This document shows positions 1 through 5,153 of a stretch of DNA of 5,153 nt, piece by piece. Source of the DNA: Escherichia coli. Its GTDB lineage: Bacteria; Pseudomonadota; Gammaproteobacteria; Enterobacterales; Enterobacteriaceae. The stretch is from assembly GCF_013315695.1 (NCBI RefSeq), contig NZ_CP054358.1. One strand, 5' to 3'. The notes under the pieces were generated by a model. That model saw only the letters and a list, made by a program, of their open reading frames with translations, was not told the origin of the DNA and ran no database searches. A program made the position numbers and the translations under genes. Numbering within the stretch: the first letter of the stretch is position 1; each line of letters begins with the position of its first letter.

Positions 1-53
1 CATCCAACAAGGAGGTTTATAGCGAATATTCCCACAAAAAATCTTTTCCTCAT
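1..53 (-). CDS. kil: Colicin release (lysis) lipoprotein Kil, 5-prime portion: start codon at 53..51, 17 codons plus 2 nt before the window edge; continues at 5153..5069
   Basis: Reverse complement of 1..53 translates to MRKRFFVGIFAINLLVG followed by TG, which with the complement of base 5153 completes a Cys codon, giving a lipobox L-V-G-C. This N-terminus matches the ColE1 Kil protein as I remember it. A Shine-Dalgarno AAGGA (complement of 61..65) sits 7 nt upstream of the ATG. The gene lies downstream of cea and imm on the cea strand, as in pore-forming colicin operons. Confidence 0.85.
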   Translation of the reverse strand, partial: MRKRFFVGIFAINLLVG

Positions 54-100
54 AACTCGATCCTTATAAAATGAAAAGAATATATAACGAGGTTTAATTT

Positions 101-442
101 ATGAGTTTAAGATACTACATAAAAAATATTTTGTTTGGCCTATACTGCGCACTTATATATATATACCTTATAACAAAAAACAACGAAGGGTATTATTTCC
201 TAGCGTCAGATAAGATGCTATACGCAATAGTGATAAGCACTATTCTATGCCCATATTCAAAATATGCTATTGAACACATATTTTTTAAGTTCATAAAGAA
301 AGATTTTTTCAGAAAAAGAAAAAACCTAAATAATGCCCCCGTGGCAAAATTAAACCTATTTATGCTATACAATCTACTTTGTTTGGTCCTAGCAATCCCA
401 TTTGGATTGCTAGGACTGTTTATATCAATAAAGAATAATTAA
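101..442 (+). CDS. imm: Colicin E1-type immunity protein (inner-membrane protein, 113 aa)
   Basis: The 113-aa product [34 protein letters not shown]... is very hydrophobic with about three predicted transmembrane segments, and matches the ColE1 immunity protein as remembered. It is antisense to and convergent with cea; the stop codons overlap (cea ends at 439, imm at 442). GAGG at 90..93 lies 7 nt before the ATG. The gene is markedly AT-rich compared with its neighbours. Confidence 0.93.
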
Positions 443-2004
443 ATACCCAACACCTCATTTATAGTATTAAGTTTATTCTTATCAATAAAGGCACATAGAA
501 TGCCTGTAACAATAGCAATCCCCCAGATACCTAATGTAGTTCCAGCAAGCACACTAAAAAGTAAAACAACAACATAACTAACTCCAGCATCTACAGCTTT
601 CTTCTCTAATGTAAGAAATAGCGGCTTCCAGTCACCTGTATCCTTAATTTTTAGGATATCAGATACCACATCATATCCAAAAGAAACATGTCCCGTAATC
701 TTCAAGTACTTGGCAAACTGATCTAAATGCTTAGCCCAGTCTTCATACTTAACCGCCTCCAGTGCATTGAAAATTGCATCACGGTCTGCTTTGCTGAATT
801 TCTTATTTAATACATCCTTGTATTTCTCAAAAGCAGCTAGAGCTTCATTCACATTGCTGATTTTCTTACCTTTAGATTTATCAGCAAGTTCCTGTGCCAT
901 TTTTGAATATTTTTCACCATATTTTTCAGATAGCGTTTGATAAAAGCTAACTGTTGCATCCACAGCATCCTTAATCTGCGAGTTCAGGAGATTAGTCTGT
1001 GCTGTTTTCAAATTATCTTCAGCATCATGAATACGTGAAACTGCTGTACTTCGCTTATTATTAGCCTGAGAAATAGCCTCTTGGATTCCATTTATCTCAG
1101 AGCTAATCTGGTTAAGACGCGTTTCTGATGCTGTTACCTGCTTTTGTTTTTCCTCCATCTCATCACCAGCTCTCGCCCGTAGTCTGGTGGCCTCAAAAAA
1201 AGGACGACTCTGAAGCGGATCATTCGCCCTAGGAGATAAAAGTTTAACCCTTTCATCCAGTTCTTTATATTTAGCAGATGCCTGATCCAACTCATTTCGT
1301 TTTCCGGACAGCGTATTCGTTTCTGCATCACGGGCATGAATACTGGAGCTTAAACGGGTATTGAGCGTATTAATCTCTTCATCCACTTTCGCCAGCTCAG
1401 ATTGTGCAGCAGCAAGATTTTTTTGTGCCACCTCCACAGCCCGGGCCTCTTCACTCAATGCTGCCAGGCGTTTCTCTTCATCCTCAGCCAGTTTCAATTG
1501 GCGTTCTGTTTCAGCCTGCTCCTTCTCTATCTCTTTACGTCGTTGTTCTGCTTCCTGAAAAGCCTTTTCCGCAGCTTCCGCTTCTTTACGGGCTTTTTCT
1601 TCTGCTTTTGCAAGGCGCAACCGCTCTGCTTCTGCCTGCATCGCTGCATTATTGGCATGAGCCAGGTCAATAACCTCCGGATGAGTGGAATTATGGCGAA
1701 GCGCCTCATTCACAATATCCTTCAGATGTTGAGTCAGCGCATCCCGGTTTGCTTTCGCTTTAGCCTGTGCTTCTGCGGCAGCTTTTGCTCGGGCAGCCTG
1801 TTCTGCCTGCGTTTTCTTCAATTGAGCAGTAGACCATTTAGCTGTGGCATGAATGGCTGCAGAACTTTCACTTTTGCTACCTCCAGTTCCACCACCACCG
1901 CCAGAGCCACTCCCGTCTGGATTACCATTCAAAAGAGTAATGATTACCTGCCCCTTATCATCATAAGGAACACCATCTTTATAGTACGCTACAGCTGTTT
2001 CCAT
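439..2004 (-). CDS. cea: Pore-forming colicin, colicin E1 type (521 aa): glycine-rich N-terminal translocation region, central coiled-coil receptor-binding region, C-terminal channel-forming domain
   Basis: Product begins [27 protein letters not shown]...[18 protein letters not shown] and ends ...[47 protein letters not shown] (hydrophobic hairpin of the channel domain). It is collinear with colicin E1 (522 aa) from memory, with scattered substitutions. AGAGGA precedes the ATG. The promoter with LexA boxes is immediately upstream. Confidence 0.96.
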
Positions 2005-2051
2005 TATAAAATCCTCTTTGACATTAAAAACAAATAGTTAAAAGCAATATA

Positions 2052-2082
2052 CTGTATATATAATCACTGGTTTTATATACAG
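2052..2082 (-). promoter_or_regulatory. Twin overlapping LexA (SOS) boxes of the colicin operon
   Basis: Read on the - strand: CTGTATATAAAACCAG (complement of 2067..2082) and GTGATTATATATACAG (complement of 2052..2067). Both are close to the CTGT-N8-ACAG consensus. They lie between the -10 hexamer and the cea start, as in ColE1. Confidence 0.8.
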
Positions 2083-2086
2083 TTTA

Positions 2087-2115
2087 AAATTACGCCGCTG
2101 CATTTTCCCTGTCAA
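2087..2115 (-). promoter_or_regulatory. sigma70 promoter of the cea-kil operon (-35 TTGACA at 2115..2110, 17-bp spacer, -10 TAATTT at 2092..2087)
   Basis: Reverse complement of 2086..2116 reads TTGACAGGGAAAATGCAGCGGCGTAATTTT. This is a perfect -35 with a 17-bp spacer, and the predicted start site falls inside the LexA boxes. Confidence 0.75.
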
Positions 2116-2263
2116 CCCTGTGGATTTTCATTTTTGTGAAAACGATCAAAAAAACAGCCACCCACACCACGTGCTATTTCCACCCGATGCCACAAAAACC
2201 AGCACAAACATTACCGTTCTCAGACCTCATTATGTTTTACTGAAACCATGAGATGAGACACCT

Positions 2264-2701
2264 ATGGGACACTGTAACTTTATGGCATGGCACACACTCC
2301 GGGACGCACTGAAAATGACTGGAAGATCGCGTTCACAGTTTTACCGTGATATGCGCTCAGGTCTTGTCAGTTACCGTACCAGCCAGGACGGACGACGGGA
2401 GTTTGAAACCAGTGAACTGATCCGGGCATACGGCGAATTAAAGCGGAATGAGACACCAGAAAGGCACACTCAAGGACACTCAGAAAAACCTCATGATCAG
2501 CAGACAGAACGCATTCTCCGGGAACTGAATGAGCTGAAACAATGCCTGACGCTGATGCTTGAGGATAAACAAGCCCAGGATACGGAGCGCCGGCGCCAGG
2601 AAGCAGAACGGAAACAGCTACAGAATGAGATAGCCCAGCTCAGGCAGGCTCTGGAGCAGGAAAAGAAACGGGGATTCTGGTCCAGGCTGTTCGGTCACTG
2701 A
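2264..2701 (+). CDS. Hypothetical DNA-binding protein (145 aa): N-terminal AlpA/Xis-like helix-turn-helix followed by a charged coiled-coil segment; function unknown
   Basis: Intact 145-aa ORF in otherwise uncrowded DNA. Residues around 9-55 (WHTLRDALKMTGRSRSQFYRDMRSGLVSYRTSQDGRREFETSELIRAY) fit the excisionase/AlpA-type HTH pattern (L..a...tG.SRS..Yr....G......gg.r.f...e). The C-terminal part (ERRRQEAERKQLQNEIAQLRQALEQEKKR) is a heptad-like coiled coil. The ribosome-binding site is weak (GAGA upstream of the ATG at 2264) and the true start could be an internal Met, so the start is uncertain. A relationship to the entry-exclusion region reported for ColE1 is possible but I cannot confirm it from memory. 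Confidence 0.6.
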   Translation: MGHCNFMAWHTLRDALKMTGRSRSQFYRDMRSGLVSYRTSQDGRREFETSELIRAYGELKRNETPERHTQGHSEKPHDQQTERILRELNELKQCLTLMLEDKQAQDTERRRQEAERKQLQNEIAQLRQALEQEKKRGFWSRLFGH

Positions 2702-2781
2702 ACGCGCTCAGAAACTGATGATAAGATAATCTTCGGATAATAACTCACCGAGAATAAATACTTTAAGGTAGGGAGACACTC

Positions 2782-3201
2782 ATGAGACGTACCGGAAACA
2801 AACTTTGTCTTATCGCCATGATAACAGCAACAGTAGCTCTCACAGCCTGTACCCCAAAGGGCAGCGTGGAACAACATACCCGGCATTACGTATATGCTTC
2901 TGATGACGGTTTTGATCCCAACTTTTCCACCCAAAAAGCCGACACAACACGAATGATGGTGCCTTTTTTTCGGCAGTTCTGGGATATGGGAGCTAAAGAT
3001 AAAGCGACAGGAAAATCACGGAGTGATGTGCAACAACGCATTCAACAGTTTCACAGCCAGGAATTTTTAAACTCACTCCGGGGCACAACTCAATTTGCGG
3101 GTACTGATTACCGCAGCAAAGACCTTACCCCGAAAAAATCCAGGCTGCTGGCTGACACGATTTCTGCGGTTTATCTCGATGGCTACGAGGGCAGACAGTA
3201 A
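2782..3201 (+). CDS. Predicted lipoprotein (139 aa; signal peptide with lipobox L-T-A-C, mature protein about 116 aa, Thr at +2), function unknown; candidate surface/entry-exclusion-type protein
   Basis: Strong Shine-Dalgarno AGGGAG (2770..2775) 6 nt before the ATG. The N-terminus MRRTGNKLCLIAMITATVALTAC has a positively charged n-region, a hydrophobic core and a lipobox Cys. The mature part is hydrophilic with no catalytic motif I can recognise. The stop codon (3199..3201) lies 5 bp from the XerD arm of cer. Confidence 0.75.
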   Translation: MRRTGNKLCLIAMITATVALTACTPKGSVEQHTRHYVYASDDGFDPNFSTQKADTTRMMVPFFRQFWDMGAKDKATGKSRSDVQQRIQQFHSQEFLNSLRGTTQFAGTDYRSKDLTPKKSRLLADTISAVYLDGYEGRQ

Positions 3202-3205
3202 GTGG

Positions 3206-3235
3206 ATTTACCATAATCCCTTAATTGTACGCACC
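3206..3235 (-). other. cer: cer-type Xer site-specific recombination core (XerC arm, 8-bp central region, XerD arm)
   Basis: Reverse complement of 3206..3235 is GGTGCGTACAATTAAGGGATTATGGTAAAT, matching the ColE1 cer crossover core from memory (XerC site GGTGCGTACAA, central TTAAGGGA, XerD site TTATGGTAAAT). Confidence 0.85.
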
Positions 3236-3335
3236 ACTGAAACGCGCTGAACGCGATTCTGACGCAGACACCGCAAAAAGAGATGTTTTACCCCGGAAAA
3301 ACAGGAAGGATGCGTCAGGATCGTTTTCAGCTCTC

Positions 3336-3349
3336 TGCATAGCTATGCA
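3336..3349. promoter_or_regulatory. Candidate ArgR box within the cer accessory sequences
   Basis: Perfect 14-bp palindrome TGCATAGCTATGCA at the distance from the Xer core where the cer ARG box lies. Assignment is by position and symmetry only. Confidence 0.5.
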
Positions 3350-3425
3350 TGAAAGCGAATGGTGATCACTTTGGGAGCTTACGGTGTTCATACCGTCAGT
3401 TTTCGACAGTTTTCTCTCCGGGAAG

Positions 3426-3773
3426 CTAATCTGCCATAAGCCTGGATAACAGGGCACGGTGATACTCCGTAATAGCGATCAGCACCTCCGCATACTCCCT
3501 GTCCCCGACACGCTTGCCGTCGATAAAGAGTTTTTTCTGTAACGCCCCCAGTCTCATAACTTCTTTCAGTACCCGATCATCAGTCAGTGAGTTAACTTTC
3601 TTACCGAGAGCTGCCGCCCGTAAAAAACCGGAAACGGTCTTGCCGCATTCAGCAGCCCTTTTTCTGATTTCCTGGTCTTCTTCTGCCGTCAGACGAACAG
3701 GGCGACTGATAGCCCGCCTGCGCGTATTACTTCCACTTCGTTTTGTCATAAAACATGGCTCCGTATCTGACAT
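3426..3773 (-). CDS. mbeC: Mobilisation (relaxosome accessory) protein of the MobC/MbeC family, ribbon-helix-helix type; alternative start at 3749 gives 107 aa
   Basis: Product ...RRRAISRPVRLTAEEDQEIRKRAAECGKTVSGFLRAAALGKKVNS...LGALQKKLFIDGK... has the MobC-family signature (R.VRLT.EE...I...A...G.SVS.F.R..ALG). GGAG (complement of 3759..3762) sits 9 nt upstream of the internal ATG at 3749, so that may be the true start. The oriT-like region is immediately upstream. No relaxase gene follows. Confidence 0.85.
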   Translation of the reverse strand: MSDTEPCFMTKRSGSNTRRRAISRPVRLTAEEDQEIRKRAAECGKTVSGFLRAAALGKKVNSLTDDRVLKEVMRLGALQKKLFIDGKRVGDREYAEVLIAITEYHRALLSRLMAD

Positions 3774-3900
3774 GGGTGTCGGGGCAAAGCCCTGACCAGG
3801 GTAATTGTAATAGCGTGCATGTATGCGCGGTATAACAATTACACATCCTGTCCTGTCAGCAAGTTCGAATTACCGACAAAGGCACGGCAGTTTTTTGGCA
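3774..3900. other. oriT/bom-like region (origin of transfer) upstream of mbeC, with inverted repeat 3801..3812 / 3831..3842
   Basis: GGGTGTCGGGGCAAAGCCCTGACCAGG (3776..3802) resembles the start of the pBR322/pMB1 bom region (GGGTGTCGGGGCGCAGCCATGACCCAG) as remembered. It is followed by the inverted repeat GTAATTGTAATA ... TATAACAATTAC, a typical oriT hairpin. The nick position is not determined. Confidence 0.5.
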
Positions 3901-4032
3901 GTGACAGTATTGTCAGGCAGAAATACCCGTCAAAGCGTCAGACGGCAGAATACCGGCGGTAAAACAGTCGAAAAGTGGTACGCGATATAATCACACAACG
4001 CAGATGACAGACAGAACGGAGAAAACGAAAAG

Positions 4033-4227
4033 ATGAACAAGCAGCAGCAAGCCGTACTCAACATGGCAGGATTCATAAAAAGCCAAAGCCTGACGCTGCT
4101 CGAAAAGCTGGACGCACTCGATGCTGACGAACAGGCTACCATGTGTGAGAAGCTGCACGAACTCGCAGAAGAACTCCAGAACAGCATCCAGACACGCTTT
4201 GAAGTAGAAAATAGCACAGAGAGATAA
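4033..4227 (+). CDS. rom: Rom/Rop (RNA one modulator), 64 aa, four-helix-bundle regulator of the RNA I-RNA II kissing complex
   Basis: MNKQQQAVLNMAGFIKSQSLTLLEKLDALDADEQATMCEKLHELAEELQNSIQTRF... aligns along its length with pBR322 Rop (MTKQEKTALNMARFIRSQTLTLLEKLNELDADEQADICESLHDHADELYRSC...). GGAG precedes the start; the gene is adjacent to oriV and oriented towards it. Confidence 0.9.
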   Translation: MNKQQQAVLNMAGFIKSQSLTLLEKLDALDADEQATMCEKLHELAEELQNSIQTRFEVENSTER

Positions 4228-4868
4228 CGCTCAGGACAGGATACCGAACGGCACAACAGAGCGTAAGGAGAAAATGTCACATAAGGCGCTCTTCCGCTTC
4301 CTCGCTCACTGACTCGCTACGCTCGGACGTTCGACTGCGGCGAGCGGTGTCAGCTCACTCAAAAGCGGTAATACGGTTATCCACAGAATCAGGGGATAAA
4401 GCCGGAAAGAACATGTGAGCAAAAAGCAAAGCACCGGAAGAAGCCAGCGACGCAGGCGTTTTTCCATAGGCTCCGCCCCCCTGACGAGCATCACAAAAAT
4501 CGACGCTCAAGCCAGAGGTGGCGAAACCCGACAGGACTATAAAGATACCAGGCGTTTCCCCCTGGAAGCTCCCTCGTGCGCTCTCCTGTTCCGACCCTGC
4601 CGCTTACCGGATACCTGTCCGCCTTTCTCCCTTCGGGAAGCGTGGCGCTTTCTCATAGCTCACGCTGTTGGTATCTCGGCTCGGTGTAGGTCGTTCGCTC
4701 CAAGCTGGGCTGTGTGCACGAACCCCCCGTTCAGCCCGACCGCTGCGCCTTATCCGGTAACTATCGTCTTGAGTCCAACCCGGTAAGACACGACTTAGCG
4801 CCACTGGCAGCAGCCGTTGGTAACTTGGTTAGCAGAGCGATGATGGCGCAAATGGTGCAACAGAGTTC

Positions 4869-4898
4869 TTGAAGTAGTGGCCCGACTACGGCTACACT
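4869..4898 (+). promoter_or_regulatory. RNA I promoter (-35 TTGAAG, 18-bp spacer, -10 TACACT)
   Basis: Hexamers positioned as in pMB1; the RNA I start at about 4905 lies 7 nt downstream of the -10. Confidence 0.6.
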
Positions 4899-4904
4899 GG
4901 AAGG

Positions 4905-5012
4905 ACAGTATTTGGTATCTGCGCTCTGCTGAAGCCAGTTACCTCGGTTAAGCAGTTCCCCAACTGACTTAACCTTCGATCAAACCGCCTCCCCAGGCGG
5001 TTTTTTCGTTTA
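4905..5012 (+). ncRNA. RNA I (antisense copy-number control RNA, about 108 nt)
   Basis: Starts ACAGTATTTGGTATCTGCGCTCTGCTGAAGCCAGTTACC, identical to the 5-prime end and stem-loop 1 of pMB1 RNA I. Ends in a stem (CCGCC 4985..4989 / GGCGG 4996..5000) followed by TTTTTT. -35 TTGAAG (4869..4874) and -10 TACACT (4893..4898) are upstream. Confidence 0.85.
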
Positions 5013-5020
5013 CAGGCAGC

Positions 5021-5049
5021 AGATTACGCGCAGAAAAAAAGGATCTCAA
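5021..5049 (-). promoter_or_regulatory. RNA II promoter (-35 TTGAGA at 5049..5044, 17-bp spacer, -10 TAATCT at 5026..5021)
   Basis: The complement of GGATCTCAAG...AGATTACGCG gives TTGAGA and TAATCT, the same elements as the pBR322 RNA II promoter. Confidence 0.7.
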
Positions 5050-5060
5050 GAAGATCCTTT
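5034..5060 (-). terminator. Hairpin plus short U-run just downstream of the kil stop; candidate terminator of the cea-kil transcript, overlapping the RNA II -35 region
   Basis: Arms AAAGGATCT (5038..5046) and AGATCCTTT (5052..5060) with a 5-nt loop. On the - strand the hairpin is followed by TTTT (complement of 5034..5037). The kil stop is at 5071..5069. Confidence 0.4.
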
Positions 5061-5068
5061 GATCTTTT

Positions 5069-5153
5069 CTACTGAACAGAGATCCCCGTCAATTTAGAAG
5101 AAGATGATGGAGCCACAGTCCCTCCCTGAACATCACGTATATAGTTAGCCTGA
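5069..5153 (-). CDS. kil: Colicin release (lysis) lipoprotein Kil, 3-prime portion (residues about 18-45 plus stop at 5071..5069); joins 1..53 if the molecule is circular
   Basis: Reverse complement of 5153..5069, in the frame set by bases 2..1, reads (C)QANYIRDVQGGTVAPSSSSKLTGISVQ then TAG. This is a near-exact continuation of the ColE1-type lysis protein, giving a 45-aa lipoprotein overall. Neither the ORF track nor a linear gene finder can see it because it is split by the window boundary. Confidence 0.8.
   Translation of the reverse strand, partial: QANYIRDVQGGTVAPSSSSKLTGISVQ

Follow-up and report, generated by a model that had tools for sequence, protein, structure and literature searches.

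A colicin E1 plasmid of Escherichia coli with an NTP16-group backbone and a probable dependence on a relaxase supplied in trans

The window considered here, that is, the whole stretch of Escherichia coli DNA that was analysed (5,153 nucleotides; RefSeq assembly GCF_013315695.1, contig NZ_CP054358.1), carries an oriT-like site and one small open reading frame next to a Xer recombination site, and raises the question of how such a plasmid could be transferred and whether it has lost a relaxase gene of its own. A preliminary description had taken the region for a ColE1-type mobilisation operon reduced to oriT plus mbeC, with the mbeA relaxase gene deleted up to cer. The pairing of an oriT with a single accessory gene stands, but the identification of that gene as mbeC does not, as it is NikA-like and lies beside an R64-type oriT. 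We favour, with a probability of about 90%, the interpretation that this is an NTP16-group plasmid with an R64-like oriT, its own nikA, cer and a ColE1-derived colicin cargo, which would travel as a relaxase-in-trans 'hitcher', rather than a ColE1 derivative minus mbeA. What appears to be a crippled ColE1 mobilisation region would then be a widespread strategy, maintained by selection, in which a plasmid carries only oriT and an accessory protein and relies on IncI-complex helpers. This biology is already published (Moran & Hall, Plasmid 2017; the survey of Branger et al., 2019; matings in PMC8623487 and PMC9282650), and the main value of the present analysis lies in the correction of gene family, helper and history.

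Gene content of the circle and the search for a relaxase

The 5153-bp window is a whole circular plasmid, with the colicin lysis gene kil spanning its two ends (minus strand, 53..1 joined to 5153..5069; 45 aa from translation). Many circular records of 5153 bp have been deposited that are 100% identical to the window over positions 3150-4050, for example E. coli pHUSEC41-4 (NC_018996.1), which is 99.9% identical over its full length; in the same region S. sonnei Ss046 (NC_009346.1) is 99.9% identical. The plasmid type is already known from these repeated deposits, and its colicin E1 variant has been counted in a published survey (PMC6807383). Positions 1..3205 form a cargo module with similarity to ColE1 and genes on both strands, comprising kil, imm (101-442, plus strand), the colicin E1-like cea (439-2004, minus strand), exc1 (2264-2701, plus strand) and exc2 (2782-3201, plus strand). 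The genes imm, cea and exc1 follow the annotation of pHUSEC41-4 and ColE1, and exc2 encodes an Exc2 family lipoprotein (E = 4e-52) and ends 4 bp from the Xer core. An RNAI/RNAII replicon and rom are both present, as evidenced by Rfam and by alignment to the plasmid pCRP3: the ColE1-type origin occupies 4256..5050 (plus strand), with RNAI at 4907-5009 (RF00106, 87.4 bits), and rom/rop, which is named "Rop family protein" in identical records and is part of the NTP16-group backbone, lies at 4033..4227 (plus strand). Between exc2 and rom, the order given previously was confirmed in all its positions, with an open reading frame ending at 3426 and followed by cer accessory sequence, the Xer core and then the lipoprotein gene on the other strand.

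The earlier statement that no relaxase is encoded also holds. Two IncI-type NikB proteins gave no matches at E<=10 in tblastn searches of the circularised window, and the sole match for MbeA, MbeB and MbeD at the same threshold was one of 29 aa to MbeA (E = 0.006), inside exc1, which was judged meaningless. In the IncI1 plasmids pESBL-12 and pC32_2, a nikB gene of 2700 bp (899 codons plus stop) begins 10 bp beyond nikA. Because the window is a complete circle and its longest stretch without an assigned feature is 259 bp, there is no room in it for a relaxase gene.

A NikA-like gene beside an R64-type oriT

The open reading frame 5' of cer (3426..3749, minus strand; 107 aa in its RefSeq form) is assigned here as nikA, encoding a predicted ribbon-helix-helix (RHH) relaxosome accessory protein. 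Its start is placed at the second ATG (3749), with GGAG 9 nt upstream, and an upstream ATG at 3773 would extend the frame to 115 aa (3426..3773); the stop codon occupies 3426-3428. Pfam identifies the product as NikA-like (PF21983, E = 5e-18) and it scores 112.7 bits against NCBIfam NF041264, for which the curated cut-off is 80, so that both resources put it in the NikA-like/MobA family (NF041264) and not with MobC. It shares 53% identity over 102 aa with NikA of IncI1/R64 (E = 4e-38), and it also matches the N-terminal RHH domain of R64 NikA in the Protein Data Bank (2BA3, E = 2.4e-5). A tblastn search of the window with ColE1 MbeC returned no significant match (best E = 1.5). The mbeC label was rejected on the combination of absent MbeC similarity and 53% identity to NikA. 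The same protein accession, WP_000166966.1, is shared by the window and the plasmids pU302S, pCRP3, pGDE043-5, pE110019_5 and pPSS-15_3.

The naming of this gene and of its plasmids in public resources warrants a separate remark. RefSeq calls the window's nikA product 'MobA', and MOB-suite and PLSDB type NTP16-group plasmids as carriers of a 'MOBF relaxase', though none is encoded. These are two annotation traps which the present case illustrates.

Upstream of nikA lies an oriT of R64/IncI1 type (3781..3856, plus strand), recognised by similarity to IncI1 oriT. It comprises a short GC-rich palindrome (3781-3800), a 20-nt imperfect inverted repeat with arms at 3801-3820 and 3823-3842, which is predicted to bind NikA, and the nick-region motif ACATCCTG|T (3843-3851). 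Over 85 bp, window positions 3774-3856 share 84.7% identity with the oriT upstream of nikA in pESBL-12, and the oriT of pC32_2 is 78.8% identical; palindrome, inverted repeat and nick-region motif are all kept between the window and IncI1 oriT. We take the IncI1/IncP nick-region consensus to place the nick within the ACATCCTG|T motif, and by this analogy nicking is predicted between 3850 and 3851 on the plus strand. A scan of 3150-4100 for promoters and terminators yielded one promoter-like site (3933..3906, minus strand, directed towards oriT and nikA), which was no more than shuffled sequences gave.

Mosaic structure and the Xer border

Could the region nonetheless be a ColE1 mobilisation operon (oriT-mbeC-mbeA-mbeB-mbeD) that lost mbeA and everything after it, with its endpoint at cer, leaving a remnant in need of MbeA from a ColE1-like plasmid? 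The premise concerning ColE1 itself was confirmed in the ColE1 record (NC_001371), where mbeC comes first (1867-2190), mbeA (~2180-3733) overlaps its stop and the cer core (3909-3938) lies beyond the operon. As a deletion derivative of ColE1 would have them, the window's colicin and exc genes and its cer core also resemble those of ColE1, at 90-95% identity. Similarity to ColE1 is, though, limited to window positions 4256-5153 and 1-3257, at 90-94% identity, and the intervening 998 bp (3258-4255), which hold the cer accessory sequence, nikA, oriT and rom, have no blastn match in ColE1 at E<=1e-5. A match to this segment, at 99.8% identity, is found instead in pCRP3, a cryptic NTP16-group plasmid (3.2 kb) from Citrobacter rodentium. 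Relative to ColE1 the window thus has a replaced segment and not an internal deletion. The loss of mbeA from a ColE1-type operon thus finds no place in the alignment, which shows no deletion endpoints to map. Further evidence against this history comes from the open reading frame, in which MbeC similarity is undetectable (tblastn E>1) and NikA identity is 53%, from the oriT, which matches IncI1 and not ColE1, from rom, which falls within the replaced segment, and from the absence of any relaxase remnant in tblastn of the circularised window. From sequence comparison we regard the ColE1-deletion history as refuted, with a residual probability that is close to negligible.

The window is instead a mosaic of an NTP16-group backbone and a ColE1-like colicin module. 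Homology to pCRP3 spans 3206 to ~5051, at 95-96% overall and 99.8% over 3206-4260, and includes all 195 of 195 positions of rom and 189 of the 190 positions of the cer accessory sequence. Mapping of identity in windows of 50 alignment columns against pCRP3, ColE1 and pU302S located a switch within the origin, which is pCRP3-like (99-100%) up to ~4791 and ColE1-like from ~4792. Both joints of the mosaic fall in sequence that is shared by the parents, one at 3206-3257, made up of the cer core and the next 22 bp, and the other in a conserved part of ori.

The first of these joints coincides with a cer-type site that begins directly 3' of nikA, with 190 bp between the nikA stop and the core. The Xer core (3235..3206, minus strand) consists of the XerC arm GGTGCGTACAA, the 8-bp central region TTAAGGGA and the XerD arm TTATGGTAAAT, and is identical to the ColE1 cer core. 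The adjoining accessory sequence of this multimer resolution site (3236..3425, minus strand) aligns with that of ColE1 cer, the global alignment of the two sites having 163 identical positions in 276 columns. An ArgR-box-like element (3334-3351) lies in register with ColE1 cer, at 117 nt from the core in the window vs 116 nt in ColE1. Both arms, the central region, the accessory sequence and the ArgR-like box, which are the features of a cer-type site, can therefore all be recognised in the window. Homology with other NTP16-group members breaks off precisely at the outer edge of the XerD arm (3206), and ColE1 similarity crosses from the cargo side through the core up to 3257. Beyond the XerD arm the group carries a variety of cargoes, including aph(3')-Ia in pU302S and, elsewhere, TEM, a reverse transcriptase, a NERD protein and NYN+HTH proteins; the core itself occurs in two variants within the group. 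The Xer core, which had earlier been placed at a deletion boundary, is on these alignments no such boundary but a family-wide border between an NTP16-type backbone and interchangeable cargo, as the title of Moran & Hall 2017 also indicates.

Comparison with published plasmids places the window in the NTP16 group or pCERC7 family, with a backbone that runs from 3206 to ~4790. The group was defined by Moran & Hall (Plasmid 2017, 89:42) and, in the summary given in PMC9282650, its members have an identical NikA (53% to R64), an oriT with no more than 3 mismatches and no NikB. Branger et al. 2019 (PMC6807383) describe the same group as 'MOBRNA type 5'/NTP16 group and report within it a highly conserved cluster that contains six colicin E1 plasmids, the colicin E1 operon being the sole colicin operon seen in two plasmid families. 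More specifically for pCERC7, a gain of the R64 oriT region has been described (PMC11389934). The window has the family NikA, an R64-like oriT upstream of it, no relaxase, the multimer resolution site (mrs) beside nikA and a variable adjoining segment, all of which are traits of the group.

A tblastn search with NikA across the 72,556 plasmids of PLSDB returned 380 records with at least 95% identity, 3658 below 60% and 7 in between. Among the matches listed, those of at least 95% were nearly all on small plasmids and those below 60% mostly on large conjugative plasmids, whose NikA proteins were 53-55% identical to that of the window and in no listed case above ~55%. A 281-bp junction probe, combining the 3' end of nikA with cer accessory sequence and counted where at least 80% was covered, found the nikA-cer junction intact in 370 PLSDB records; set against the 380 records with NikA of at least 95%, this indicates that essentially every plasmid with this NikA shares the junction. 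The hosts of these about 370-380 module-bearing plasmids are Escherichia, Salmonella, Shigella and Klebsiella. None of the NTP16-group relatives that were examined encodes a relaxase. The preliminary description had conceded that its history would fail if the lineage never had mbeA downstream of its accessory gene, and the relatives bring the evidence close to that point, in that all of the ~370 close relatives in PLSDB share the nikA-cer junction and those examined lack a relaxase. An ancestral nikAB state was also sought among intermediate NikA variants in a large protein search, in which no ancestor was found and most hits were near-identical proteins on small contigs. Of the more distant variants recovered, one with 67% identity was encoded by an NTP16-group plasmid that has a pair of IS3-family-type transposases downstream of its cer site, and another with 64% identity came from a metagenomic contig of 1.8 kb, in which the 570 bp following the gene contain no nikB.

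Maintenance, helpers and relation to known systems

The absence of a relaxase from the window could also mean that the mobilisation system is decaying, as had been proposed as one option, with oriT and nikA drifting as relics of a captured nikAB module minus nikB. The divergence of NikA, which among the matches listed is only 53-55% identical to that of any sequenced conjugative plasmid in PLSDB, would be in keeping with such drift. Comparison of the window with five relatives of varying divergence (pU302S, pF18S013-4, pGDE043-5, pE110019_5 and pPSS-15_3) points the other way. Identity to the window was 313-324/324 for nikA and 74-76/76 (97-100%) for the oriT core (3781-3856), in comparison to 164-170/190 (86-89%) for the cer accessory sequence and 158-180/195 for rom, the latter two being put at about 86-92% together. 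Four relatives differ from the window in nikA by 11, 7, 4 and 2 nucleotides, and all of these differences are synonymous, with 0 amino-acid changes. Synonymous-only change in nikA combined with a conserved oriT is the mark of purifying selection on both the protein and the site. Retention of the module in about 370-380 PLSDB plasmids also speaks against decay, as do the published matings, in the accounts given by PMC8623487 and PMC9282650, in which members with an identical NikA were mobilised by IncI1/R64. On this sequence evidence nikA and oriT are the best-conserved parts of the backbone, and the mobilisation system does not appear to be decaying; we strongly disfavour the decaying-remnant interpretation and give it a very small probability.

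We posit that a maintained nikA and oriT would function with a relaxase from elsewhere in the cell. By analogy with R64, the plasmid's own NikA would bind its oriT at the 20-nt inverted repeat that adjoins the nick region, and would bring in NikB, the relaxase of an I-complex conjugative plasmid present in the same cell. NikB would then nick at the conserved ACATCCTG|T motif, and the coupling protein and type IV secretion system of the helper would carry the strand into the recipient. These contacts of NikA with the repeat and with NikB, like the exact nick position, are inferred from the R64 system.

Published matings of sister plasmids suggest that the helper to be expected is an I-complex plasmid with NikB and not a ColE1 plasmid with MbeA. 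More specifically, pU302S, which carries nikA plus oriT only, was mobilised by IncI1 helpers and not by IncX (PMC8623487), and NTP16 was mobilised by R64 (Moran & Hall 2017, as reported in PMC9282650). The need for a relaxase in trans, as stated in the preliminary description, is thus retained, but the ColE1-like MbeA helper named there is not, given the mobilisation of pU302S and NTP16 by IncI1/R64. This changes the predicted transfer range of the colicin plasmid, for which an I-complex plasmid would be required and another ColE1 plasmid would not suffice.

A further alternative is that the module works, with its true helper belonging to another conjugative lineage that has a better-matching relaxase, and with IncI1 mobilisation representing a weaker cross-reaction. 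The existence of such an unsampled helper lineage was raised as a possibility in PMC9282650, which also reports mobilisation of pU302S by F at a very low frequency (~1e-6). The gap in NikA identity across the 72,556 PLSDB plasmids, with small plasmids at >=95%, conjugative I-complex plasmids at <=55% and 7 records between, would fit this idea, as would the metagenomic NikA with 64% identity, whose gene likewise has no nikB next to it on its short contig. Against it, the nick region and repeat are near-identical to those of IncI1 oriT, pU302S and NTP16 do move with IncI1 helpers in the accounts of PMC8623487 and PMC9282650, and a better-matching conjugative plasmid was not found. We therefore consider a non-IncI1 true helper improbable, and continue to favour mobilisation by I-complex helpers.

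An extension of the favoured interpretation can be put forward tentatively. NikA is 53-55% identical to its conjugative counterparts and essentially invariant in hundreds of small plasmids, which suggests that it may be a self-contained 'adaptor' that has diverged from its source, either giving the plasmid an oriT specificity of its own while it can still capture NikB from other sources, or tuned to an unsequenced helper. The same proposal holds that the plasmid arose as a recombinant through the cer core (3206-3257) and ori (~4790). We regard the two parts together as a speculative possibility, with the odds somewhat against it. If true, exchange at cer and ori would have moved a colicin E1 module from ColE1, which has its own relaxase, to a relaxase-in-trans backbone, thereby narrowing the range of helpers.

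Placed among known systems, the window resembles the oriT-nikA-nikB region of IncI1 R64 in the architecture of its oriT, with a nick region, inverted repeat and GC-rich palindrome at 79-85% identity, in the transcription of nikA away from oriT, and in a NikA of the RHH fold family (2BA3). It differs from R64 in that nikB and the transfer genes are absent, with cer following nikA instead, in the 20-nt arms of its inverted repeat, which are longer than those of R64 (PMC9282650), and in the only 53% identity of NikA; the window carries half of the IncI1 NikA/NikB relaxosome and is not a complete member. With the NTP16 group (pU302S, pCRP3, pMUT1 and NTP16) it shares a ColE1-type ori, rom, R64-like oriT, nikA, cer-like mrs and the lack of nikB, together with a cargo that starts right where the XerD arm of the mrs ends. 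The difference lies in the cargo alone, here colicin E1, imm, kil, exc1 and exc2, a variant that Branger et al. had already counted within the group; the RNAI end of the window's ori is, in addition, ColE1-like and not pCRP3-like. In ColE1 the mobilisation region likewise lies between rom and cer, with an RHH-type accessory gene first, the cer core is identical, and cer adjoins the 3' end of the mobilisation genes, the core being 176 bp away from the stop of mbeA in ColE1 and 190 bp away from that of nikA in the window. The accessory protein is MobC/MbeC in the Mbe system of ColE1 (MOBP5/HEN) and NikA in the window, with undetectable similarity between the two, the oriT of ColE1 is of another type (bom), and ColE1 encodes its own relaxase MbeA, where the window encodes none.

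Typing of nikA-only plasmids and a divergent NikA

The nikA-only plasmids NC_018996.1 (pHUSEC41-4), NC_003114.1, NC_006815.1 and others of the pCERC7 family (loci L001 and L005–L011) are all typed 'mobilizable; relaxase MOBF' by MOB-suite via PLSDB, and their gene is named 'mobA' in RefSeq. None of the plasmids so typed, these three accessions and others, encodes a relaxase gene, and both the MOBF type and the 'mobA' name seem to be artefacts of automated labelling that recur systematically across the nikA-only family. A 1789 bp metagenomic contig (L013; Logan, SRR10527121) encodes at 896–1219 a NikA with only 64% identity to that of the window (3426–3749, minus strand), and its oriT and nikA DNA is 69% identical to the window. 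No NikB-like sequence was found within 570 bp 3' of this nikA, nor any cer-like core. This contig may represent a second, divergent nikA-only lineage. In window 3150–4100, the sole sigma-70-like match (TTGACG-16-AATACT; 3906–3933, minus strand) lies 5' of oriT (3781–3856) and is directed at nikA. This site might serve as the promoter of that gene, but such matches are no more numerous than in shuffled sequence.

Xer core variants and the cargo boundary

The family has two versions of the Xer core, as seen at 3206–3235 of the window and at the equivalent sites of L005–L011. The window, pCRP3, pPSS-15_3 and ColE1 share the core GGTGCGTACAA-TTAAGGGA-TTATGGTAAAT with an 8-bp central region, while the cores of pU302S, pGDE043-5 and pE110019_5 resemble GGTGCGCGTAA-TGAGACG-TTATGGTAAAT and their central region is shorter. 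Similarity between plasmids stops exactly past the XerD arm, a boundary that would fit an exchange of cargo at this site. Beyond the core, the cargo adjoining the multimer resolution site includes a reverse transcriptase family protein in pPSS-15_3, a NERD-domain protein in pMS6192D, and NYN-domain and HTH proteins in pGDE043-5; such genes may be defence or toxin-type functions carried by a common backbone.

Circularity, exc1 and the mosaic origin

The colicin lysis gene kil (5069–5153 joined to 1–53, minus strand; 45 amino acids, beginning MRKRFFVGIFAINLLVGCQ) crosses both window ends, and the window is therefore the entire circular plasmid, linearised within kil. The exc1 ORF ('entry exclusion protein 1'; 2264–2701) has a weak, below cut-off NCBIfam match (E = 3.5e-11) to NF038291, a family of plasmid replication DNA-binding proteins, and resembles MbeA residues 321–349 over 29 amino acids (E = 0.006). 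These similarities suggest that exc1 encodes a DNA-binding protein of the HTH type and not one that acts in surface exclusion.

The origin (4256–5050) is mosaic. Segment 4942–5035 has no close likeness to either pCRP3 or ColE1, segment 4256–4791 is 99–100% identical to pCRP3, and segment 4792–4941, comprising the 5' part of RNAII and the start of RNAI, is nearer ColE1 (43–49/50 versus 25–36/50), a mosaicism that could affect incompatibility grouping.
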